Assembly (NCBI GenBank): GCA_963746035.1
Contig: CAVUZN010000001.1
Coordinates: 223,509 to 247,508 of the forward strand
Direction of reading: 5' to 3'
Length of the DNA: 24,000 nt
From: an uncultured Verrucomicrobiae bacterium
GTDB taxonomy: Bacteria; Verrucomicrobiota; Verrucomicrobiia; Chthoniobacterales; UBA10450
Below the pieces are notes generated by a model. It did not search any database, had not been told where the DNA came from, and saw only the letters and a program-made list of their open reading frames with translations. The position numbers were made by a program, and so were the translations under genes. Numbering within the stretch: position 1 is the first letter of the stretch; each line of letters begins with the position of its first letter. Of this stretch, positions 3,841-20,010 are shown piece by piece.

Positions 3841-5391
3841 CTACTTAACGTCGATTCTGGGGAAGAGCGGGACGGGCTGGCCGACGACATGGCCGTCCGG
3901 CAAACCGCTGGATTTTGTGTCGGCGAGGCTGAAGCGATTTTCTTTCCCGCGTTCTTCCGTTTTCCAATTCAGTTGATCGAAGATTCCGTGGGCAGCCTTG
4001 GGTAAGACCGGTGAAATCAGGATGGCGATGATCCGCAGGGAATCGGCTAAGGCATAGAGCAAACGATCGAGCGCGTCCTTCTGACTATCATCTTTCGCCA
4101 TCGCCCAGGGCTTGAGGGCATCAATCTGCTGGTTACAGCTTGTGGCGATGCCAATCGCCTGTTCCAAGCCGGCCTGCACGTGGAACGAATCCATCGCCCC
4201 GGCGTAGTGTCCTGGCACCGGCGAAAGCTCCGGCGCGTTCTGTCGAAGTTTTCCTTCCCGGTACTTCTGCGCCATGTTTAAGGACCGATTGAGCAGGTTC
4301 CCTAACGAATTGGCCAATTCCGAGTTGTAGCGCGTGATCAGTCGATCCTCCGCGAAATCGGCATCGCGGCCGGTCGCGATATCGGTAACCAGGTAATAGC
4401 GCAGCGCGTCCGCACCGTATTTGTCGGCCAGTTCATTGGGATCCACCACGTTGCCGGCGCTCTTGCTCATCTTCGCGCCGCCCAGATTCCACCAACCGTG
4501 CACGAGCAATTGTGGCAACTGCTCATCCGGAAAACCGAGCGCGTGCAGCATGATCAACCAGTAAATTCCGTGCGCTGGGATTAGGATGTCTTTGCCGATA
4601 ATCTGCACGGCCGGCCAACGGTCACGGAAGGTTGAGGGTTGAGAGTTGAGGGTTGCCTGAGCAGGATCGTAACCGAAAAAACTGATGTAGTTCGTTAGCG
4701 CGTCGAACCAAACATAAGTCACGTAGTCGCGATCGAAGGGGAGCTCGATTCCCCAGTCGAGGCGCGCTTTGGGTCGGGAGATACACAAATCTCCGATGAG
4801 TTTTTCGACCGCGTTGCGGAGCTCTGTTTGCCGAAAGTCCGGAATAACCGCATCAGGCCGCGCCTGAAGGTAACCGAGCAGCCAGTCTTTGTGCTGCCCG
4901 AGTTTAAAATAGTAATTCTCTTCCTCGCGAAATTCGACCTGTCCCCACTCCGGCCCGAACTCGCCGTCGGCTCCGCGCTCTTTGTCGGTAAGAAATTGTT
5001 CCTGCCGAACGGAGTAATAGCCGGACTGCTTGTCCTTATAAATCTGCTCTTCCTTGTAAAGCCGCTGCAGAATTCCCTGCACCACGCTCTTGTGCTTTGG
5101 ATCAACAGTAGCCGCCCATTCGCTGTAGCGGACATCAAGTTTCTTCCAAAGATCGATGAACTTTTGGGTGACGTTACTGACGAATTCGGACGGGGCGATG
5201 CCTTCACGCGCGGCGGACTGCTGCACCTTCTGGCCGTGCTGATCGACGCCCGTCAGAAAGAACACGGGCTCGCCCTTCAACCGATGATAACGAGCGATCA
5301 CGTCGGCCAGCACCTTTTCGTAGGCGTGGCCGATATGCGGCGACGAATTGGTGTAATCGATCGCCGTCGTTATGGAATAAATCCGACCCAT
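3841..5391 (-). CDS. metG: Methionine--tRNA ligase (short form, no C-terminal tRNA-binding domain)
   Basis: Class-I signatures SPHIGHAYE (HIGH) and KMSKSAGN (KMSKS). Start set at the ATG (5389-5391, MGRIYSITTAIDY...) rather than the upstream track start at 5469. Confidence 0.93.
   Translation of the reverse strand: MGRIYSITTAIDYTNSSPHIGHAYEKVLADVIARYHRLKGEPVFFLTGVDQHGQKVQQSAAREGIAPSEFVSNVTQKFIDLWKKLDVRYSEWAATVDPKHKSVVQGILQRLYKEEQIYKDKQSGYYSVRQEQFLTDKERGADGEFGPEWGQVEFREEENYYFKLGQHKDWLLGYLQARPDAVIPDFRQTELRNAVEKLIGDLCISRPKARLDWGIELPFDRDYVTYVWFDALTNYISFFGYDPAQATLNSQPSTFRDRWPAVQIIGKDILIPAHGIYWLIMLHALGFPDEQLPQLLVHGWWNLGGAKMSKSAGNVVDPNELADKYGADALRYYLVTDIATGRDADFAEDRLITRYNSELANSLGNLLNRSLNMAQKYREGKLRQNAPELSPVPGHYAGAMDSFHVQAGLEQAIGIATSCNQQIDALKPWAMAKDDSQKDALDRLLYALADSLRIIAILISPVLPKAAHGIFDQLNWKTEERGKENRFSLADTKSSGLPDGHVVGQPVPLFPRIDVK
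4630..4655. repeat. 7-bp-period tract GGTTGAG GGTTGAG AGTTGAG GGTTG inside metG
   Basis: Read directly from the sequence. In frame on the minus strand it encodes ..ATLNSQPSTF.. in the variable loop between WFDALTNY and IGKDIL. Confidence 0.8.
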
Positions 5392-5487
5392 GGGGCGATC
5401 AAAGTGCCGGACAGAGGGTCGGTTAGCAACTCCCGCTTCGTCGCTCAGCCTCGGTGCTACCGAAACCACCGCTTGGTCGTCACCGAT

Positions 5488-9825: not shown

Positions 9826-10326
9826 CTACTCGATCGGATATTCGACGCGCTCTTCTTCTTCCGGCTTTACCAGTTTGTTGCGCTCGATGATGCGCGCGCA
9901 GGTGTTCCAGCGCAGAAGAGCGTCGTCGTTGCCGGGTGGACGAACCTTTTCGGCTTTCTCGAACCAGTTCATCGCTTCCTGGAAGAAGTCGAAGGCGTGA
10001 TGGCGTGAGCCCGGCGTGTTCTGGGACAACTTCACCTTAGCCCGGCGCTCGGCGACAATCCCACTGTAGTAGCAGCGCTCGTATTCGCTGGTGATTCGAC
10101 CTAACAATTCCCGCGCTTCCGTCTCGCTGACACCGTAGCCCTTGGAGAAACGGTCAGTGACGGCGAGAAGCAGGGAGACGACGGCTTCTTGGTTATCTGG
10201 ATCTGCTTTCAGCACATCCAGGCAAATGCTTTCGGCTTCGGCCGGTTCATTCAAAAGCCGGTAACGCATCGCCTTCTCCAGCGCGGCCGGAATGGCTTCT
10301 TTTGATAGCGGCTTCAGGTCGGGCAT
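9826..10326 (-). CDS. Conserved hypothetical protein, helical/TPR-like
   Basis: 166-aa ORF with good codon bias, co-directional with and immediately downstream of the sdh cluster. The helical repeat-like N-terminus (AESICLDVLKADPDNQEAVVSLLLA) suggests a TPR-like fold. No catalytic motif recognised. Confidence 0.6.
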   Translation of the reverse strand: MPDLKPLSKEAIPAALEKAMRYRLLNEPAEAESICLDVLKADPDNQEAVVSLLLAVTDRFSKGYGVSETEARELLGRITSEYERCYYSGIVAERRAKVKLSQNTPGSRHHAFDFFQEAMNWFEKAEKVRPPGNDDALLRWNTCARIIERNKLVKPEEEERVEYPIE

Positions 10327-10334
10327 GGTGGTGC

Positions 10335-10440
10335 GTTGAAGCGATGAACAGTTAAAGCGTTAAAGCGAATCAAATCAATCAGCATCGTGGCGGCGGATCG
10401 TTCTTCGGCGAGCACGCTTCAACCCTGCAACGCTCCAACC
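10335..10440. repeat. Degenerate inverted-repeat hairpin element built from GTTRAARCG sub-repeats (cargo-less copy)
   Basis: Left arm 10335-10367: GTTGAAGCG ATGAACA GTTAAAGCG TTAAAGCG. Right arm 10415-10440: CGCTTCAACCCTGCAACGCTCCAACC. About 17/26 positions are complementary. The right arm overlaps the last codons and stop of sdhB (..GALQG*). Confidence 0.65.
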
Positions 10441-11195
10441 CATTTCCGTGCCTTTTTCCAAATCCAGCCCAGGGGATCGTAGAACTCGTCCACCACCCGT
10501 TCTTTCAAGGGAATGATCCCATTGTCGGTGATGTGAATTTCCTCCGGGCAGACTTTGCTGCAGCACTTGGTGATGTTGCAGTAGCCGATGCCGTGAGCAT
10601 TGCGCAATTCTTCGATGCGATCCTCGGTGTCGAGCGGATGCATCTCCAGGGCCGCGGCGTAGATCAGGAAGCGCGGCCCAATGAAGCGATCGTGCATCTG
10701 GTGATCGCGCAGGACGTGGCACACGTCCTGGCAAAGGAAACACTCGATGCACTTTCGAAACTCCTGCACGCGGTCAATGTCTTGCTGCTGCATCCGCCAG
10801 GTTCCATCGGGCGCGTCCGGCGGGCGCGGTTTGAATTTCTTGATCCGCTTCTTCACCTCGAAGTTCCACGAAACATCGGTGATCAAATCCTTGAGCAAGG
10901 GAAACGCCTTCAACGGCTGAATCGTGATGGGGGTGTCCAGCGGCAGGTCACTCATCCGGGTCATGCACATCAGCTTCGGCATGCCGTTAACCTCGGCGGA
11001 GCATGACCCGCATTTGCCGGCCTTGCAGTTCCAGCGGCAGGCCAGGTCGTTAGCGTGATCGCGCTGGATGTCGTGCACCGCATCGAGGACGACCATGCCT
11101 TCGGAGCATTCGGTGGTGTATTCGCGGAATTCGCCGCCGGTGGAATCCCCCCGGAAAATTCGGAAAACTGCCGTTTTTACCGTTGAAGTGTTCAA
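10419..11195 (-). CDS. sdhB: Succinate dehydrogenase / fumarate reductase iron-sulfur subunit
   Basis: Three Cys clusters: CRWNCKAGKCGSCSAEVNG...C (2Fe-2S), CIECFLCQDVC (4Fe-4S), CNITKCCSKVCP (3Fe-4S). TTG start at 11195 is the only start codon upstream of the conserved N-terminus. It overlaps the upstream stop by 4 nt (TTGA). Confidence 0.92.
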   Translation of the reverse strand: MNTSTVKTAVFRIFRGDSTGGEFREYTTECSEGMVVLDAVHDIQRDHANDLACRWNCKAGKCGSCSAEVNGMPKLMCMTRMSDLPLDTPITIQPLKAFPLLKDLITDVSWNFEVKKRIKKFKPRPPDAPDGTWRMQQQDIDRVQEFRKCIECFLCQDVCHVLRDHQMHDRFIGPRFLIYAAALEMHPLDTEDRIEELRNAHGIGYCNITKCCSKVCPEEIHITDNGIIPLKERVVDEFYDPLGWIWKKARKWVGALQG

Positions 11196-11214
11196 GGGTT
11201 GAAGCGTTGAAGCG
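11182..11214. repeat. 3'-side arm (mRNA sense) of the inverted repeat bracketing the four-helix-bundle gene
   Basis: GTTGAAGTG TTCAAGG GTTGAAGCG TTGAAGCG. Positions 11194-11214 are the reverse complement of 11672-11692 at 19/21 positions. Confidence 0.8.
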
Positions 11215-11671
11215 TTTCACCGGGAGCGAGAATCTCGGTGCAGTCTTCTTCGTTATCGCCTTCGCGGACGCGCTTATCAGAATTAATTCTGCCGCGAAGG
11301 AAACGGATGTAACCGTTTAAGACCTGGTGAACACGCCATCCTTGAACCTTAAGGTCGGCCAGTTGGGCGGCCGTTTCGTATTCCTCGTCTTCGCAGACAT
11401 TGAGGTCATCGCTCAGCTCTTCAAGCGATCCGCGAGCTTGCAGGTTAAATCTGATCTGATCGGGATAATGATACCGGCCGTGCCCCTCCGCGATATTGTT
11501 AGTCAATGAGACCGCAGCTCTTCGAATTTGGCCGGCTAGACCGAACTTTTCTTCCACGGGGAGAATCTTCGCCACTTTGTACATGGCTTTCCTGAATTCG
11601 CGCGCGACTTGATACGCCTCCAAGTCTTCGAAAGTTCGGTAACGTTGATCTTCAGAGTCGGTCTTCTTCAT
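11192..11671 (-). CDS. Four-helix-bundle protein (23S rRNA intervening-sequence protein / Avd-like family)
   Basis: Family-typical helices: LEAYQVAREFRKAMYKV, EEKFGLAGQIRRAAVSLTNNIAEGHGR, LQARGSLEELSDDL. At 159 aa it is longer than the usual ~120 aa because of N- and C-terminal extensions. The C-terminal ..ETLQRFNP* is encoded by the repeat arm. Confidence 0.85.
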   Translation of the reverse strand: MKKTDSEDQRYRTFEDLEAYQVAREFRKAMYKVAKILPVEEKFGLAGQIRRAAVSLTNNIAEGHGRYHYPDQIRFNLQARGSLEELSDDLNVCEDEEYETAAQLADLKVQGWRVHQVLNGYIRFLRGRINSDKRVREGDNEEDCTEILAPGETLQRFNP

Positions 11672-11707
11672 CGCTTTAACGTTTCAACCCTTCATCGGTT
11701 TAACGAC
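11672..11707. repeat. 5'-side arm (mRNA sense) of the inverted repeat bracketing the four-helix-bundle gene
   Basis: CGCTTTAACGTTTCAACCCTTCATCGGTTTAACGAC fills almost the whole sdhA-stop to ATG spacer and abuts the ATG at 11669-11671. Confidence 0.8.
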
Positions 11708-11712
11708 GGCTC

Positions 11713-13524
11713 TCATCCCATCTCCTCGATCACCTGCTTCAGATACTCCGGCATTTCCGGCAGCGGCTCCAAACGAATCCGCATCGAGCCATCCGGCGCT
11801 TTGCCGACGATCGTGTTCACTTTTGAAAACCGCTCCTCCTTCGCCGGGTAATCATCGCGAAACTGGGCGCCGCGGCTTTCCTTGCGCTCGATTGCGGCGC
11901 GCGTGATTGCCTCCGACACGATGAGCAGATTTTTGAGATCGATCGCGGTGTGCCAGCCCGGATTGAATTCACGGTGACCGATGACGCCGACCGCGCGTGT
12001 CCGTTGCCAGAGCTTTTGGAGTTCGCTCAAGGCCGTCTGCATCTCATTTTCAGTTCGGACGATGCCGACGTTGTCCTGCATCATCTCCTGAAGATCTTTT
12101 TGGACCTGGTAAGGATTTTCTCCGTCACTGCGTTCGAAGGGCGTCAGGGCGTCTTTGCCAGCGTGCTCGATTTGAGCGGGATCGATCGCTCCATGCGCGT
12201 TTTCTTTTGCGAACTTCGCGGCGAATTCGCCGGCGCGTTTTCCGAAAACAATAATGTCCGACAGCGAATTTCCTCCAAGCCGGTTGGCGCCATTGATTCC
12301 GGCTGCGCATTCGCCGGCCGCGAACAGCCCCGGTATGCGCGACATCTGCGTTTCGGGATGCACATGAATTCCGCCCATCGCGTAATGCGTTGTCGGACCG
12401 ACCTCCATCGGTTGCTCCGTGATATCTATGTCAGCTAGCTGCTTGAACTGGTGATACATGCTGGGCAGCTTCCGTTTGATGTGTTCGGATGCGTTCGGGA
12501 GCTTCTCTTTGATCCAGGCGATGTCCAAATAGACGCCACCGTGGGGCGATCCCCTGCCCTCTTTGATTTCGCGCACGATGCAACGGGCGACGTGATCGCG
12601 GGTCAATAGTTCAGGCGGACGCCGCGCGTTCTTATCGCCCTGGCAGTAGCGCCACCCTTCCTCCGCATTGTCCGCGGTTTGTGCGCGGTAATTGTCCGGA
12701 ATCGACTCGAACATGAAGCGTTTGCCTTCTTTGTTAGTCAGGATCCCGCCCTCACCACGCACGCCTTCCGTCACCAAGATGCCACAGACGCTGGGCGGCC
12801 AGACCATCCCGGTGGGATGAAATTGGACAAACTCCATGTCGATCAGCTCGGCACCGGCTTCATAGGCAAGCGCGACGCCGTCACCGGTCGATTCCCAACT
12901 GTTGCTCGTAATCTTGTAGGCGCGACCGAGACCGCCGGTGGCGAGCACAACAGCTTTCGCCCGGAAAATTTTGAAACGGCCGCGCTCGCGTTCGTAACTA
13001 AATGCACCGGCAATCCGCTCGCCGTCCTTAAGCAGCGTGAGGACCGTGTGCTCCATGAACACTTCAATTCCCTGATGGATTCCGTGATCCTGTAAGGTGC
13101 GGATCATCTCCAGCCCGGTGCGATCGCCCACGTGAGCGAGGCGCGGATAACGATGGCCGCCAAAATTGCGCTGCAGAATCTTGCCGTCCTTGGTGCGGTC
13201 AAAGACGGCGCCCCACGCTTCCAGTTCACGCACACGATCGGGCGCTTCTTTGGCGTGCAACTCGGCCATGCGCCATTGATTCACGTACTGGCCACCGCGC
13301 ATGGTATCGGCGAAATGGACTTTCCAGTTGTCGCGATCGTCAACGTTCGCGAGCGCGGCGGCGATACCGCCTTCGGCCATGACTGTATGCGCCTTGCCGA
13401 GAAGTGATTTACAGATCAGGCCTACCGAAACCCCTGCCGTCGACGCTTCGATCGCCGCCCTCAATCCCGCTCCACCTGCGCCGATAATCAGGACATCGAA
13501 GGTGTGAGTTTGGTAGTCAGGCAT
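11713..13524 (-). CDS. sdhA: Succinate dehydrogenase / fumarate reductase flavoprotein subunit
   Basis: FAD fold DVLIIGAGGAGLRAA, covalent-FAD histidine context KAHTVMAEGG, FVQFHPTG, GANRLGGNSL. Confidence 0.95.
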   Translation of the reverse strand: MPDYQTHTFDVLIIGAGGAGLRAAIEASTAGVSVGLICKSLLGKAHTVMAEGGIAAALANVDDRDNWKVHFADTMRGGQYVNQWRMAELHAKEAPDRVRELEAWGAVFDRTKDGKILQRNFGGHRYPRLAHVGDRTGLEMIRTLQDHGIHQGIEVFMEHTVLTLLKDGERIAGAFSYERERGRFKIFRAKAVVLATGGLGRAYKITSNSWESTGDGVALAYEAGAELIDMEFVQFHPTGMVWPPSVCGILVTEGVRGEGGILTNKEGKRFMFESIPDNYRAQTADNAEEGWRYCQGDKNARRPPELLTRDHVARCIVREIKEGRGSPHGGVYLDIAWIKEKLPNASEHIKRKLPSMYHQFKQLADIDITEQPMEVGPTTHYAMGGIHVHPETQMSRIPGLFAAGECAAGINGANRLGGNSLSDIIVFGKRAGEFAAKFAKENAHGAIDPAQIEHAGKDALTPFERSDGENPYQVQKDLQEMMQDNVGIVRTENEMQTALSELQKLWQRTRAVGVIGHREFNPGWHTAIDLKNLLIVSEAITRAAIERKESRGAQFRDDYPAKEERFSKVNTIVGKAPDGSMRIRLEPLPEMPEYLKQVIEEMG

Positions 13525-13542
13525 TGTTGCGGAAAGAGGGCC

Positions 13543-13643
13543 GTTAAAGCGTTGAAAGGTTAAAACGTTGAAACGTTAGGGAGTCGGCCACTCGCATCAG
13601 AAATTCTTTCGCTTCATCGTTTTAACGATTAAACCCTTCAACC
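13543..13643. repeat. Inverted-repeat hairpin element of GTTRAARCG sub-repeats (cargo-less copy) in the sdhC-sdhA spacer
   Basis: Left arm 13543-13575: GTTAAAGCGTTGAAAGGTTAAAACGTTGAAACG. Right arm 13610-13643: CGCTTCATCGTTTTAACGATTAAACCCTTCAACC. 26/33 positions are complementary. About 34 nt (13576-13609) separate the aligned arms. Confidence 0.75.
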
Positions 13644-13646
13644 TCG

Positions 13647-14453
13647 TCATAAGAGCCGCCAGTCATGCCAGACGCCCATCGAACAGAGGCGAACGTAGAG
13701 ATCCGTGAAGCCAACCCAGATCAAGCTCATCCAGGCCCAGAGCATGTGGCGGCGATTAAAACAGCTGACGCAGGCATAGGCTCCGGCGCAGGGCGGCGCT
13801 TTGGAAAACTGGTCGAGGAACCCGCCGACAAGGTGACGCAGCGAATGACAGCCCAGGGTGTAGCCGCCGAGGAAGACGACGTTAGCGCAAAGCACGATCG
13901 TGCCGAGCCCCAGACCTAACGAGCTACGTTCCGTGCCAGGATCAGCAAACCAGAACGCTTTCCAGGCGTCATAGGCCAGGATGAGGAGAAAGATGAGGGC
14001 GAGGTAAAGGAAGTAGCGGTGAACGTTTTGCAGAATGAGGGGGAAGTGACGCTCACCGAGATAGCTTTTGCGCGGCTCACCCACGGTGCAGGCCGGTGGA
14101 TCGGCCCAGAACGCCTTGTAGTACGCTCCTCTGTAGTAGTAACAGGTGAGCCGGAAGCCGCCCGGCGCCCAGAGGATGAGCAATGCGGGAGAAAAGAAAA
14201 GCCAGGCGGGCCACCACGTCGGCTTTGGGCCGAACCAGGCGTGCGGCGAATCACCGAAAAGTTCGGGCGAATAAAAGGGCGAGATGTAATTGCCGAAATG
14301 ATAATGCGCGCCCTGGAAGGCGGCCCAGGTCGAGTAAACAATGAATGTGGCGAAACCGAGAAAAACGACGAGCGGCTGCGCCCACCACGCATCGCGGCGC
14401 ATGGTCGCGCCAAACGATCGTTGCGGAAGAGCTGCCGTGCTCGCGCCGTTCAT
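13647..14453 (-). CDS. Putative succinate dehydrogenase membrane anchor / cytochrome b-like subunit
   Basis: Polytopic hydrophobic 268-aa protein with several conserved-looking His (HYHFGNY, NVHRYF, GCHSLRHL) directly upstream of sdhA-sdhB. Assignment is mainly by operon position and topology. Start could be M1 (14453) or M18. Confidence 0.6.
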   Translation of the reverse strand: MNGASTAALPQRSFGATMRRDAWWAQPLVVFLGFATFIVYSTWAAFQGAHYHFGNYISPFYSPELFGDSPHAWFGPKPTWWPAWLFFSPALLILWAPGGFRLTCYYYRGAYYKAFWADPPACTVGEPRKSYLGERHFPLILQNVHRYFLYLALIFLLILAYDAWKAFWFADPGTERSSLGLGLGTIVLCANVVFLGGYTLGCHSLRHLVGGFLDQFSKAPPCAGAYACVSCFNRRHMLWAWMSLIWVGFTDLYVRLCSMGVWHDWRLL

Positions 14454-18593: not shown

Positions 18594-18688
18594 CGCCTGT
18601 ACGCTATCGTGGCATGGGCATTCTGCCAACGTTCAGCATTGATTCGGTCGGCTGGACTCCGATGCGACGGGAAGATTTGCGACGGCCT

Positions 18689-18707
18689 GAGACCGCCGCT
18701 ACAGAAG
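18689..18707. repeat. Solo half-copy of the GAGACCGCCGCTACAGAAG repeat arm
   Basis: GAGACCGCCGCTACAGAAG is identical over GAGACCGCCGCTACAGAA to 19720-19737. No complementary arm lies nearby. It runs into AAGGAG, 8 nt upstream of the ATG at 18718. Confidence 0.75.
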
Positions 18708-18717
18708 GAGACGACCG

Positions 18718-19503
18718 ATGAAACAGAATGCATCTGAGCTCGCGGCCAAGGTTCCAGCGGTCACCCTGCTCTTCTGGGTCGTCAAGATCCTCGCCACCAC
18801 GCTGGGCGAAACAGGCGGCGATGCCGTAACAATGTCGTGGCTCGGGGAGACGACGGCTGAAGCGAAAGGAACGGGCTACCTGATTGGAACCGCTATCTTC
18901 GGCGTCATCTTTATCGTGGCCGTGCTGATTCAGATCAGAGCGAAAAAGTTTCACCCTCTTCTGTATTGGCTAACGATAGTCGCGACCACCACCGTGGGAA
19001 CGACCCTAGCCGATTACTGCGATCGATCTCTCGGGATCGGTTACACCGGCGGCTCCGCCATTTTGTTGGCCTGCGTGATCGCTTCGCTGCTCGCATGGTA
19101 TTGGTCCACTGGAACGATCTCGATCGAAACGGTCAACCGGCCGAAGGTGGAGATGTTTTACTGGGTCACGATCATGTTTTCGCAAACGCTCGGCACCGCG
19201 CTGGGCGACTGGGTGGCCGACACTAACGACGTGGGATATCTCGGCGCGGCCGCGGTGTTTGGTGCGCTGCTTCTGGTTACGGCCGTTCTCTACTACTTCA
19301 CCAGCTTGTCACGTGCGGTTTTGTTTTGGGCGGCTTTCATTTTGACGCGACCGTTAGGCGCGGTGGTGGGCGACTTCCTGGACAAACCGCACGCGCAAGG
19401 CGGATTGGCCTTGAGTCGTTACGCAGCCTCGTTCGCCTTACTGGGCGTGATGATTTTGCTAATTCTGATCTCCCCGCAACGACCCGCGACGAGATCGCAT
19501 TGA
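18718..19503 (+). CDS. Integral membrane protein with four tandem 2-TM repeats (COG4705-like uncharacterised membrane protein)
   Basis: Eight predicted hydrophobic segments. The motif recurs four times: ATTLGETGGD, GTTLADYCDRSLG, SQTLGTALGDWVAD, TRPLGAVVGDFLDKP. AAGGAG Shine-Dalgarno lies upstream. Confidence 0.7.
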   Translation: MKQNASELAAKVPAVTLLFWVVKILATTLGETGGDAVTMSWLGETTAEAKGTGYLIGTAIFGVIFIVAVLIQIRAKKFHPLLYWLTIVATTTVGTTLADYCDRSLGIGYTGGSAILLACVIASLLAWYWSTGTISIETVNRPKVEMFYWVTIMFSQTLGTALGDWVADTNDVGYLGAAAVFGALLLVTAVLYYFTSLSRAVLFWAAFILTRPLGAVVGDFLDKPHAQGGLALSRYAASFALLGVMILLILISPQRPATRSH

Positions 19504-19519
19504 GGCGCGCGCGAAACTT

Positions 19520-20010
19520 CCGGGGAGGGCGGGCGCCTCGCGCGCCCGATTGCGGCGCCCTCGCCGCAATCAGTTGGAGGGATCTAATAGAACGAAGGCG
19601 AGGCGCCATCGTAGGCGCGCGAGGCGCGGGCCCTCCCCGGAGGTTCAAAGACGTCTTCTTGTAGCGGCGGTCTCTGAGCGTCGCATTCTTCTTCGATGCG
19701 TTGGAGTTTCGGGCGGTCGGAGACCGCCGCTACAGAAAGACCCGCGCGCTCCGCCTACTTCGCCGTCATGTTGCCGGCGGTTAGATTTCCGCTTGCGTAG
19801 GGGGCCGACTGCGCCGCCGCCGCGCGATCAATTAGAGAGATCTAATAGAACGAAGGCGAGGCGCCATCGCAGGCGTGGGAGGCGCACGCCCTCCCCGGAG
19901 GTCCGACGACGTCTTCCTGTAGCGGCGGTCTCCGACCGTCGCATTCTTCTTCGATGCGTTCGAGCGGCGGTCGAAGACCCGCTACAGAAGAAGCGCGAGA
20001 AGCAGTCCTA
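19520..20010. repeat. Two tandem copies (~258-bp period) of a GC-rich structured repeat in a convergent intergenic spacer
   Basis: Identical 30-mer ATCTAATAGAACGAAGGCGAGGCGCCATCG at 19582-19611 and 19840-19869. Further shared blocks are GACGTCTTCyTGTAGCGGCGGTCTC and CGTCGCATTCTTCTTCGATGCGTT. Copy B is degraded in both stem partners. Confidence 0.85.
19660..19734. repeat. Long hairpin within repeat copy A (15-bp perfect stem)
   Basis: TGTAGCGGCGGTCTC (19660-19674) and GAGACCGCCGCTACA (19720-19734) are exact reverse complements. An inner CGCAT/ATGCG mini-hairpin lies at 19682-19700. Confidence 0.85.

Follow-up and report, generated by a model that had tools for sequence, protein, structure and literature searches.

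Why does a gene for a four-helix-bundle (4HB) protein lie between sdhA and sdhB in an uncultured Verrucomicrobiae bacterium, enclosed by a long-range inverted repeat? Sequence analysis of the window (the whole 24-kb stretch of DNA presented here) and comparison with related loci suggest, with a probability of roughly 0.75, that the 531-nt segment is an IVS-type hairpin cassette carrying a promoterless 4HB gene, and that it is an exchangeable, selfish-type module rather than a source of an SDH subunit. Its site is, to judge from these comparisons, the ancestral sdhA/sdhB ATGA overlap of part of the Chthoniobacterales (Verrucomicrobiota), and its kin occupy nuo, cys, cox and other operons. Because relatives of the segment show an exchangeable module, rRNA IVSs appear to represent a general kind of cassette, found in ordinary operons as well.

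rRNA IVSs and the S23p ORFs inside them have remained a curiosity without explanation since about 1990. The protein family concerned (PF05635/TIGR02436) is very large, and to our knowledge its sole assigned function is that of Avd in DGRs. In a literature search that covered few subscription journals, IVS-type cassettes in mRNA operons were not described.

The 4HB gene and its operon

An earlier note on this DNA placed a 4HB ORF between sdhA and sdhB, and profile searches bear this out. The protein belongs to PF05635 (E=3.6e-26 over residues 15-119; 91.9 bits, cut-off 33.8) and to TIGR02436 (E=1.4e-23; 83.2 bits, cut-off 24), with PF05635 as its sole match in the Pfam scan, and the neighbouring genes match the models NF005866 and NF009052 (Table 1). 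A profile search of the PDB returned 2GSC alone (XCC0516; E=2e-15), an entry with five chains; the oligomeric state has been described as a pentameric toroid (Lin 2006, as cited in PMC4990558). The protein also matches the PHROG entry 'Avd protein of DGR' (phrog_3206, E=8.7e-7), and its orthologues give weak matches to PF22296 (bAvd). An AF2 model built from a 23-sequence alignment is all-helical with a low-confidence tail, at a low pLDDT of 60.6. From about residue 130 on, the protein ends in an acidic disordered tail.

The public gene call starts at M30 and predicts 130 aa. Homologues conserve the 29 residues that this call omits, and the 159-aa reading is therefore correct. A median dN/dS of 0.052 across 115 pairs indicates strong purifying selection, and 54 columns of the alignment are invariant; to judge by these two measures, the protein is functional.

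Table 1. Features of the sdh operon in the window
Feature	Coordinates	Strand	Description	Evidence or content
sdhC-like gene	13647..14453	-	membrane anchor, 268 aa, first in operon	ORF list and synteny
sdhC|sdhA hairpin	13543..13642	-	ORF-less hairpin with periodic arms in the spacer	sequence, motif matches, repeat search
sdhA	11713..13524	-	flavoprotein subunit, 603 aa	NF005866 (E=1.7e-296); PF00890, PF02910
Cassette 5' arm	11672..11705	-	about four 8-nt units	CGTTAAAC CGATGAAG GGTTGAAA CGTTAAAG CG
4HB gene	11192..11671	-	159 aa, S23p / 23S_rRNA_IVP / Avd family	family matches, conservation, dN/dS
Cassette 3' arm	11181..11214	-		CGCTTCAA CGCTTCAA CCCTTGAA CACTTCAA CG
sdhB	10419..11195	-	iron-sulfur subunit, 258 aa	NF009052 (E=4.7e-122), aligned from residue 7
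sdhB|orf166 hairpin	10335..10439	-	ORF-less hairpin with periodic arms at the junction	motif matches, repeat search
orf166	9826..10326	-	downstream gene, 166 aa, conserved and syntenic in relatives	weak TPR-like match

The 268-aa product of the first gene has no Pfam or NCBIfam match, and a 267-aa gene occupies the equivalent position in the relatives L001-L006. sdhA ends with a TGA at 11715-11713. The 3' arm supplies the last seven codons of the 4HB gene, which spell ..LQRFNP*, as the earlier note had read them; the same is true of the TTGA at 11192-11195, in which the 4HB stop codon (TGA, 11194-11192) overlaps a TTG (11195-11193). That this TTG starts sdhB, also claimed earlier, is a good inference: the frame offers no other start before an upstream stop codon, and where L001 and uninserted relatives point to the ancestral ATG, this genome has GTA. 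On this reading of the sequence, sdhB would have lost its own ATG and rely on a start codon that the cassette arm provides, an example of how host genes can become cassette-dependent. Further downstream, the ATG of orf166 lies at 10326, after the 3' arm of the sdhB|orf166 hairpin.

The region scanned showed no sigma-70-like promoter in either orientation, and inside the cassette the coding (minus) strand has no terminator-like site; two weak terminator-like matches fall on the opposite strand. Rfam at gathering thresholds gave no match in the window, and no rRNA.

Inverted arrays of short units enclose the gene

The arms of the cassette are inverted arrays of a unit of about 8 nt, GTTRAAGS in this cassette; the unit of its own (cognate) arms is GTTGAAGC, and CGTGAATC and GTTAAAAG are non-cognate arm units. 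A relative (L047) has 7-nt units. The earlier note described a 21-nt inverted repeat, and this proved to be the core of a longer one: the 21 nt match at 19/21 positions, with both mismatches A.C in the mRNA as stated there, and the repeat search extends them to 34 nt at 79% complementarity. The strong stem involves the inner 21 nt of the 5' arm (11692-11672), which indeed ends at the ORF's AUG, position 11672 adjoining the ATG at 11671. The 5' arm also holds a mini-ORF of three codons (ATG AAG GGT TGA, 11695-11684) in frame with the 4HB ATG. This geometry is conserved across 34 sdh cassettes: by the medians, the 5' arm begins 1.5 nt past the sdhA stop and ends 0.5 nt from the 4HB ATG, and 3 nt separate the end of the 3' arm from the sdhB start that follows it.

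Arm pairing was compared with shuffled controls, as the earlier note had proposed. The arm duplex reaches -31.9 kcal/mol, against -16.8±3.3 kcal/mol for 1000 dinucleotide shuffles (z=-4.6; 0/1000 as good). When 601 nt of the mRNA strand are folded, pair probabilities within the inner 21 bp are 0.66-0.89, and the long-range stem is present in the MFE and centroid folds alike.

The earlier claim of a paired stem stands as regards the strength of the duplex; signals of selection at the RNA level did not appear. Arm mismatches show no wobble bias (31 of G.U type vs 40 of A.C type), and the two arms show no covariation within a locus at the polymorphic unit position (OR 1.1, p=1.0). Because G.U tolerance and within-locus covariation are both lacking, support for RNA-level selection of pairing is weaker than first thought, and both absences are points against the cassette reading proposed here. 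On the opposite strand, both mismatches become G.T and the arm duplex reaches -44.6 kcal/mol; this antisense stem, stronger than that of the mRNA strand in the window, was likewise counted against that reading. With RNAduplex, self pairs averaged -30.5 kcal/mol and cross pairs -23.1 kcal/mol, the own partner being the best in 4/78 cases; because most loci share one unit family, this test was replaced by a family contingency table.

Insertion and exchange among relatives

Uninserted Verrucomicrobia carry GAGATGAAATGAAAAC at the site, an ATGA overlap of sdhA and sdhB, and the gap between the two genes is at most 30 nt in most of the 80 species surveyed. Because these uninserted Verrucomicrobia keep the overlap, the 4HB ORF is an insertion. 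Orthologous cassettes interrupt sdhA|sdhB in about 47 metagenome loci and in L014. Comparison of the junction in relatives thus revealed that carriage is not universal. Indeed, uninserted and inserted hosts are interleaved: L018 and L091 share 86% nucleotide identity, whereas inserted hosts have a median of 78.5% among themselves.

Exchange of whole units is clearest in two hosts, L104 and L170. Along 1.4 kb on either side, each 100 nt of their flanks is 0.91-0.99 identical, whereas their cassettes share 0.56-0.73 nucleotide identity and 62% amino acid identity, with saturated dS and with arms of the AAGC and AAAG families, respectively. Homology stops directly after ..GAGAATC and restarts at (A/T)TGAAAAC, so that its limits coincide with the arm ends. 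L096 and L127 display the same pattern. A single ancient insertion followed by purely vertical descent is ruled out by this decoupling of host and cassette. The precise swapping could in principle be recombination, not transposition.

Throughout the set, the arm family follows the 4HB clade (identity 0.80-0.82 within families vs 0.65-0.74 between them) and does not track the host (0.788 vs 0.789, p=0.87). The same 4HB subfamily also occurs at nuoB|nuoC (15 loci), nuoD|nuoI, PAPS_reduct|PAPS_reduct (cysH|cysD-like), |coxM, kdsB| and |nagB, and a distant 4HB gene in Chloracidobacterium lies at sdhC|sdhA instead. The 4HB proteins group mainly by insertion site, and transposition between sites is therefore infrequent. 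This grouping was counted against the cassette reading, and so were the recombination option and the failure to find a transposase, integrase or reverse transcriptase gene in the scanned parts of the window.

Comparison with known cassettes

The closest anatomical counterpart is the rRNA IVS of Coxiella burnetii and Leptospira. The Coxiella IVS is 428 nt long and has a 28-bp terminal inverted-repeat stem, a sense S23p ORF in the loop and tandem heptamers (GACAGAT) directly upstream of the ATG; RNase III cuts it mid-stem (PMC4990558). The 531-nt segment repeats this plan, with a terminal stem of 21-34 bp around the whole element, a PF05635 ORF in the loop in sense to the host transcript, and tandem 7-8-nt repeats directly before the ATG, whose copy number varies between strains. 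Its GC content (about 0.51) lies below that of its flanks (0.57-0.60), as IVS GC lies below that of the host, and its sporadic distribution is, as for IVSs, consistent with horizontal transfer. An IVS-like and probably selfish or mobile cassette, as suggested in the earlier note, is thus supported by the ATGA ancestor, the patchy presence, the whole-unit swaps and the shared anatomy. Two features set the segment apart: its host is an mRNA stop/start junction rather than an rRNA helix with a 23S/16S tetraloop site, and its ORF is under strong purifying selection and probably chained to the translation of host genes, unlike the Coxiella ORF, which is decaying and probably untranslated.

Avd of DGRs is a homologue in fold and family; its positively charged barrel, a pentamer, binds an RNA stem-loop (bioRxiv 10.1101/2023.10.23.563531). 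No reverse transcriptase, template repeat or variable repeat was found in the examined parts of the window and loci: scanned window ORFs gave no RT match, and no long direct repeat of TR/VR type was noted around the cassette. Integron cassettes resemble the segment in being promoterless small ORFs served by a host promoter and exchangeable at a fixed site, with imperfect, foldable inverted repeats. Unlike the integron cassette with its single 3' attC, however, the segment has repeats on both sides of the ORF and occurs as one cassette per site; no integron integrase was matched among the scanned window ORFs, and no attI was found.

How the cassette may work

The cassette would be transcribed as part of the sdh mRNA. 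Its arms are predicted to pair over 21-34 bp, looping out the ORF so that the sdhA stop and the sdhB start meet at the base of the stem. Translation would be relayed from sdhA through the 4HB gene to sdhB, because the stem's inner edge is where the 4HB gene starts, and the 4HB stop overlaps the sdhB start in the TTGA. By analogy with rRNA IVSs, in which cleavage has been shown, the stem is a plausible candidate substrate of RNase III; the geometry appears compatible both with such processing and with structure-gated translation of sdhB.

The 4HB protein, as a pentamer, most likely binds the repeated units that flank its own gene, in RNA or in DNA, in a way comparable to the binding of a DGR RNA stem-loop by Avd. 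This would be its likeliest job given the purifying selection and the co-variation of its clade with the arm units. Such binding could steer the processing, maintenance or spread of the hairpin repeats.

Alternative readings and the hairpins without an ORF

The window contains two further hairpins built of the same units and lacking an ORF (Table 1). At sdhC|sdhA, the 5' arm (13642-13611: GTTGAAGG GTTTAATC GTTAAAAC GATGAAGC) and the 3' arm (13574-13543: GTTTCAAC GTTTTAAC CTTTCAAC GCTTTAAC) are separated by a loop of 36 nt; this hairpin is absent from L001, where the sdhC-sdhA gap is 3 nt. At sdhB|orf166, the 5' arm (10439-10416: GTTGGAGC GTTGCAGG GTTGAAGC) holds the sdhB stop codon and is followed by a loop of about 49 nt and a 3' arm at 10366-10335 (GCTTTAAC GCTTTAAC TGTTCATC GCTTCAAC). 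ORF-less unit hairpins were seen in relatives too.

These hairpins invite a different explanation, of rather low probability: host-beneficial regulatory RNA hairpins, STRR or REP/BIME-like, would tune the SDH subunit ratio in that they stabilise parts of the transcript and gate the next gene's translation or couple it, with the 4HB gene as a passenger in one of the loops. Such hairpins indeed occupy all three operon junctions (13543-13642, 11181-11214/11672-11705 and 10335-10439), as tandem repeats of the 7-bp class inverted between co-transcribed genes. Short tandem repeats are likewise inverted between redox-enzyme subunit genes in cyanobacteria, where an STRR between hupS and hupL has been proposed to stabilise the transcript or couple translation (PMC2670836); of the known systems, STRR hairpins resemble the two ORF-less hairpins most closely, although they belong to another phylum, consist of other units and have not been described with an ORF or a 4HB link. 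In the cassette, the upstream stop and the downstream start would be brought together at the stem base, and the segment right upstream of the sdhB start lies in the stem (pair probability 0.8-0.9). Moreover, NTGA stop/start motifs are 2.4 times as frequent in 5' arms as in shuffles, and all three frames are closed in 45% of the arms vs 12%, although total stop density is not raised (2.57 vs 2.31); that the 7-9 nt period serves as an all-frame stop-codon device is only an idea. Such regulation is, however, hard to reconcile with the fact that most relatives, close ones included, lack any hairpin and have the plain ATGA overlap, or with hairpins that are indel-polymorphic between hosts with 92-97% identical flanks. 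It would also lead one to look for the wobble bias and within-locus covariation that are absent, and strong purifying selection on the 4HB gene is needless for a mere passenger.

A DNA-level mobile element of REPIN/RAYT type has a similar, rather low probability. The arrays would be protein-binding ends, the 4HB protein a specificity or mobility factor by which hairpins of its cognate unit are copied or maintained, and RNA pairing incidental. REP/REPIN and RAYT systems also place a gene between inverted hairpin repeats and leave the repeat gene-free in spacers, as do the two in-operon hairpins and those of relatives, and in both systems the repeat family co-varies with the protein lineage, here with the 4HB clade rather than the host. 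ORF-less hairpins and the nearby cassette mostly share one unit family (a mean of 8.36 shared 7-mers for the junction of the locus itself vs 6.50 for others, p=0.019), and minority unit families are clear (for instance 23 vs 5.9 in L127). In L096 and L127, the unit family has switched at both junctions, while the sdhB between them stayed 0.88-0.96 identical. The arms behave as arrays with no co-evolving helix, and their mismatches are strand-symmetric. A role of the IVS ORF as a mobility component was an idea of Ralph & McClelland 1993 (cited in PMC4990558).

Several observations weigh against such an element. One host, L170, does not fit: its cassette is of the AAAG family, and its second junction is AATCG-like. 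All 16 unit matches in the window lie inside the sdh operon (16/16, with 0 in the other 20 kb), so that no genome-wide dispersal is seen in the window, and the arms are 8-nt tandem arrays rather than a single REP palindrome. Every cassette examined seems to run in the direction of its host operon, an orientation not required of a DNA transposon. RAYT is an HUH transposase, whereas the 4HB protein has no HUH (Y1) signature and no known catalytic motif; we know of no nuclease or recombinase chemistry for a four-helix bundle. PADLOC gave no match for the 4HB protein.

A broader proposal is more speculative still: S23p/Avd-like pentamers might be the sequence-specific factor of an unrecognised class of hairpin-repeat elements, of which the rRNA IVSs would simply be the first-seen members. 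Its strongest hint comes from hosts with 92-97% identical flanks, in which the arms of the cassette have switched to a new unit family and a second hairpin, lacking an ORF and at a distance of 750 nt, has switched to that same family, with the sdhB between them unchanged. Conceivably, though with low probability, such elements would write clade-specific arrays of 7-9-nt units, with or without the gene; their target sites, an equally conjectural point, would be the stop/start junctions of highly expressed operons and rRNA helices.

It is very improbable that the 4HB protein is a dedicated accessory or assembly subunit of SDH, fixed in the operon. Its recurrence at the sdhA|sdhB junction (about 47 metagenome loci and L014), the purifying selection on it and its translational link to sdhB would fit such a role. 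However, the gene is missing from close relatives with an intact operon, its subfamily recurs in nuo, cys, cox, kdsB and nagB contexts, cassettes are swapped apart from host genes, and the distant Chloracidobacterium gene lies at sdhC|sdhA. A chance inverted repeat flanking an ordinary small gene, for which the ordinary fold energy of the whole fragment may be cited (MFE z=-0.70 against shuffles, a statistic insensitive to any single helix), is already ruled out by the comparative data: 21-mers with at most three mismatches are expected 0.00 times in a shuffled 24-kb window, the arm duplex is far stronger than its shuffles, and at least 15 matched arm bp recur in 59/78 distinct, independent related cassettes of differing sequence.

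Implications and other cargo

If the 531-nt segment is an IVS-type cassette, the IVS architecture of stem, ORF and short repeats is also at home in Verrucomicrobia that are abundant in soil, where it occupies stop/start junctions within respiratory operons, with precise modular exchange, strong purifying selection and a unit that co-varies with the protein clade. For annotators, 4HB genes at such junctions are not to be read as operon members.

The 4HB gene is one of several cargoes. Cassettes with PDDEXK_3 cargo have arms of the same style as 4HB cassettes; together with the hairpins that lack an ORF, they indicate that the arms need no 4HB ORF in cis, a further point against the cassette reading. 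Cargo in other phyla includes toxin-antitoxin genes.

A cassette between sdhA and sdhB

The sdh operon lies on the minus strand, and the identities of sdhA and sdhB are unambiguous (table). The earlier note had placed a four-helix-bundle (4HB) gene of the 23S rRNA intervening sequence (IVS)/Avd family between them. Profile searches bear this out: the ORF product matches PF05635 '23S rRNA-intervening sequence protein' (E=3.6e-26), TIGR02436 'four helix bundle protein' (E=1.4e-23), the X. campestris S23p structure 2GSC (E=2e-15) and the PHROG 'Avd protein of DGR' (E=8.7e-7). The public gene call (P0001, NCBI/ENA) comprises 130 aa and starts at Met30; because the first 29 residues are conserved and the Pfam match begins at residue 15, this call is too short, and the true start is the ATG at 11671.

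Features of the sdh region and other repeat-bearing sites in the window
Feature	Coordinates	Strand	Basis or remark
GC-rich nested inverted repeats	18678-19943		
sdhC-like gene	13647-14453	minus	ORF call
ORF-less hairpin, sdhC-sdhA spacer	13642-13611 / 13574-13543	minus	GTTRAARSGTTRAARS matches, repeats
sdhA	11713-13524	minus	NF005866 E=1.7e-296
Cassette inverted repeat	11181-11214 / 11672-11705		34 nt
Mini-ORF	11684-11695	minus	within 5' arm
4HB ORF, 159 aa	11192-11671	minus	PF05635, TIGR02436 matches
sdhB	10419-11195	minus	NF009052 E=4.7e-122
ORF-less hairpin, sdhB-orf166	10439-10416 / 10366-10335	minus	contains sdhB stop codon
orf166, conserved 166-aa gene	9826-10326	minus	ORF call
metG	3841-5469	minus	
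7-nt periodic tract	4627-4655		inside metG

The inverted repeat around the ORF matches at 19 of 21 positions, as had been claimed, and extends to 34 nt with 79% complementarity; in shuffled windows, the expected count of a comparable 21-mer is 0.00. The proposed stem also withstands comparison with shuffled controls, the arm duplex reaching -31.9 kcal/mol vs -16.8±3.3 in 1000 dinucleotide shuffles (z=-4.6). When 601 nt of the mRNA strand are folded, both the MFE and centroid structures contain the stem, with pair probabilities of 0.66-0.89 along its inner 21 bp. The z-score of the whole-fragment fold, a statistic not addressed to one helix, is unremarkable (-0.70). Pairing of the window arms on the antisense strand is stronger (-44.6 kcal/mol). 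The TTGA stop/start overlap of the 4HB ORF and sdhB is real, and its TTG, inside the cassette arm, is probably the sdhB start codon, the ATG of relatives reading GTA in the window. A mini-ORF of three codons (ATG AAG GGT TGA) is in frame with the 4HB ATG and 24 nt upstream of it; relatives, e.g. locus L100, have comparable ATGAAG..TGA units in their arms.

Insertion site and distribution

An ATGA stop/start overlap is a classic arrangement for translational coupling. This is the state of the uninserted sdhA-sdhB junction in Verrucomicrobia (..GAG ATG AAA TGA AAA CC...), and in most of the 80 loci at which the gap was measured (genomes with sdhB, one per species) it spans 30 nt or less. Presence is patchy among the nearest relatives, Chthoniobacterales whose sdhB is 82-86% identical: L012, L013 and L016 have no insert, L014 carries the 4HB gene, and L011, L015 and L017 contain other, non-coding inserts. 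Uninserted hosts are no more distant from inserted ones (up to 86% nucleotide identity) than inserted hosts are from one another (median 78.5%). These junctions uphold the proposed insertion and, within the genomes compared, show the cassette to have entered an ancestral ATGA overlap. In L011 (1337-1546) and L017 (3831-4001), both Chthoniobacterales MAGs without 4HB, the junction holds a non-coding hairpin of another kind, TGTCATCCCGAG...CTCGGGATGACA (42/47 matched in L017); in L017 a further hairpin of GTTACAAG units follows sdhB.

A protein search with the 4HB sequence gave 6688 matches; the best 120, at 60-70% identity, measure about 163 aa. In ten metagenome loci, which also keep the wider synteny, the database protein P0006 occupies the sdhA-sdhB junction. 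Scanning metagenomes with the family alignment returned 80 loci: approximately 47 have the order sdhA-4HB-sdhB, and the other 33 carry a 4HB gene of the same subfamily (55-71% identical) elsewhere. Contexts with Pfam-verified neighbours include nuoB-nuoC (15 loci), nuoD-nuoI-like, a pair of PAPS-reductase genes (cysH-cysD-like), the interval between an upstream gene and a coxM-like FAD subunit, and sites after kdsB and before nagB. The proteins cluster mostly by insertion site, with exceptions at 88% (L110 at sdh, L123 elsewhere) and 82% identity (L164 at sdh, L140 elsewhere; L169 at nuoD-nuoI, L133 at nuoB-nuoC). A distant 4HB gene (142 aa, 29% identical) occupies sdhC-sdhA in the Chloracidobacterium MAG L051 (1685-2131); its stop overlaps the sdhA start, and its flanks are complementary (GGTTGGCAGTAGCAGTTGGCAGT / ACTGCCAACTGCCGCTGCCAACC).

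Arms as inverted arrays of short units

Complementary flanks accompany nearly every cassette, with at least 15 matched arm bp in 59 of 78 distinct cassettes (median 20.5). The arms are tandem arrays of units of roughly 8 nt that differ between loci: GTTGAAGC / GTTAAAGC / GATGAAG (the window and 24 others), CGTGAATC / GAGAATCG, GTTAAAAG / GTTGAAAG, GTTACATGA (the nuoB-nuoC set) and further families. Both arms of a cassette share a unit family in 24/24, 5/5 and 6/8 classified pairs, the two exceptions pairing with minor, related families. The layout is constant across 34 distinct sdh cassettes: the 5' arm begins a median of 1.5 nt past the sdhA stop and ends 0.5 nt from the 4HB ATG; the 3' arm takes in about the last 7 codons of 4HB and stops short of the sdhB start by a median of 3 nt. 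Arm sequence is partly translated and makes up the family's C-terminal ..RFNPSSL(QRFNE) and N-terminal ..AMKR motifs. Units contain TGA or TAA, often as NTGA, and three units close all three reading frames in 45% of cases vs 12% in shuffles; frame closing may explain why the unit period is not a multiple of three.

Arm complementarity is roughly 90% (1566/1741 aligned positions) and, because neutral sites are saturated, must on this comparison be actively maintained. Mismatches between arms carry no RNA signature (31 G.U-compatible vs 40 A.C). Across loci, the states of the two arms at the polymorphic GTT[R]AA position are associated (OR 6.7, p=1e-5), but within loci bearing both unit types they are not (OR 1.1, p=1.0). 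By these results, the arms act as one unit family arrayed in inverted orientation rather than as a helix co-evolving base by base.

Exchange of cassettes and selection on the protein

Arm family tracks 4HB clade (identity 0.80-0.82 within families, 0.65-0.74 between) and is unrelated to host similarity (0.788 vs 0.789 nucleotide identity, p=0.87). In loci L104 and L170, 1.4 kb of flank on either side is 0.91-0.99 identical when taken in 100-nt windows, whereas the cassettes, with AAGC and AAAG arms, respectively, share 0.56-0.73 nucleotide and 62% protein identity with saturated dS. The alignment breaks directly past ..GAGAATC and resumes at (A/T)TGAAAAC; the sdhB start codon at the border is ATG in one locus and TTG in the other. 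L096 and L127 repeat this pattern. Swapped cassettes bring in no more than about 10-15 nt of flank, and the swap looks more like an exchange specific to the site or cassette than like ordinary homologous replacement. Such mosaics could otherwise stem from chimeric metagenome assembly; as compared here, the loci show the cassette to be an exchangeable module. Its protein core has a median dN/dS of 0.052 (115 pairs, dS about 1.7) and 54 invariant columns, including a ..SLTNNIAEGHGR.. motif. Judged by its codons, the protein is under purifying selection and functional.

Relation to known intervening sequences

The Coxiella IVS is a 428-nt element whose inverted repeats, one at each end, pair into a 28-bp stem cut midway by RNase III; the loop contains its S23p ORF in sense orientation, with two to three tandem GACAGAT heptamers directly upstream of the ATG, its GC content is below that of the host, and horizontal acquisition is inferred (PMC4990558). 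Xanthomonas S23p is a homopentameric toroid, and an old idea holds that the IVS ORF encodes a mobility component (PMC4990558). Avd, described as 'similar to S23 ribosomal proteins', is also pentameric; its ligand is a stem-loop in DGR RNA (bioRxiv 10.1101/2023.10.23.563531). For the 7-bp STRR hairpins between hupS and hupL, the proposed roles are transcript stabilisation or translational coupling (PMC2670836). No description of IVS-type cassettes in protein-coding operons was found in the literature searched, which excludes most subscription journals. The earlier reading is essentially right, and the cassette is best classed as an IVS-type element outside rRNA; because of that location, and because RNase III cleavage of the stem is proposed by analogy only, it is called IVS-like rather than an IVS.

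The 21-34-bp stem is predicted to loop out the 4HB ORF and juxtapose the sdhA stop and sdhB start. Co-transcription with the sdh operon is probable: the scanned region yielded no sigma-70-like promoter, and the cassette coding strand no terminator-like site. Translation would be relayed from sdhA through 4HB to sdhB, and the 4HB protein would bind the unit arrays. The finding gives experiments a way to address what S23p/Avd-like proteins do and what IVSs are.

Hairpins without an ORF and other cargo

Matches to GTTRAARSGTTRAARS, with up to 2 mismatches allowed, number 16 in the window vs 0.41 expected, and all fall within 10351-13642; those outside the cassette arms form the two ORF-less hairpins, which use the same 8-nt units as these arms. 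Locus L001 has neither hairpin; that at sdhB-orf166 occurs only in some cassette-bearing Chthoniobacterales and L017. Its units usually match the local cassette arms (on average 8.36 shared 7-mers for a locus's own junction vs 6.50 for others, p=0.019; L127, 23 vs 5.9; L165, 20 vs 4.0). Between the closely related hosts L096 and L127, both junctions have switched from AAGC to AATCG units around an sdhB that is still 0.88-0.96 identical; in the L104-L170 pair, compared likewise at both junctions, L170 is a partial exception. This concerted switching is the main hint of a trans- or cis-acting specificity factor.

ORF-less periodic-arm hairpins also occur at sdhA-sdhB in Poribacteria (L047, 7-nt units), Gemmatimonadota (L073, CCCATAGC) and Chloracidobacterium (L080, CACGAAT). 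In the Acidobacteria L035 (3415-4001) and L048 (3517-4001), the junction holds a PDDEXK_3 (GxxExxY-type) ORF bracketed by inverted TTTCGTG-type arrays (67/80 and 27/29 matched), the same architecture as in the 4HB cassette with different cargo. Toxin-antitoxin-type genes lie in sdhA-sdhB gaps of 569-757 nt in L019, L033 and L082 (Hydrogenedentota, Pyrinomonadaceae): PIN, DUF433 with a second ORF, and ParE with a partner; no long flanking arms are obvious in the outer 110 nt.

Elsewhere in the window, the periodic tract in metG (GGTTGAG on the + strand, CAACCCT in gene sense) encodes an 8-aa in-frame insertion, TLNSQPST, in a loop relative to T. thermophilus MetRS (3VU8), and may represent an arm-like repeat standing alone within a coding gene. 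The GC-rich repeats (TGTAGCGGCGGTCTC..., GGGGAGGGCGGGCGCC...) are a separate family and fold into several REP-like hairpins; these lie downstream of a gene for a DUF347 membrane protein.
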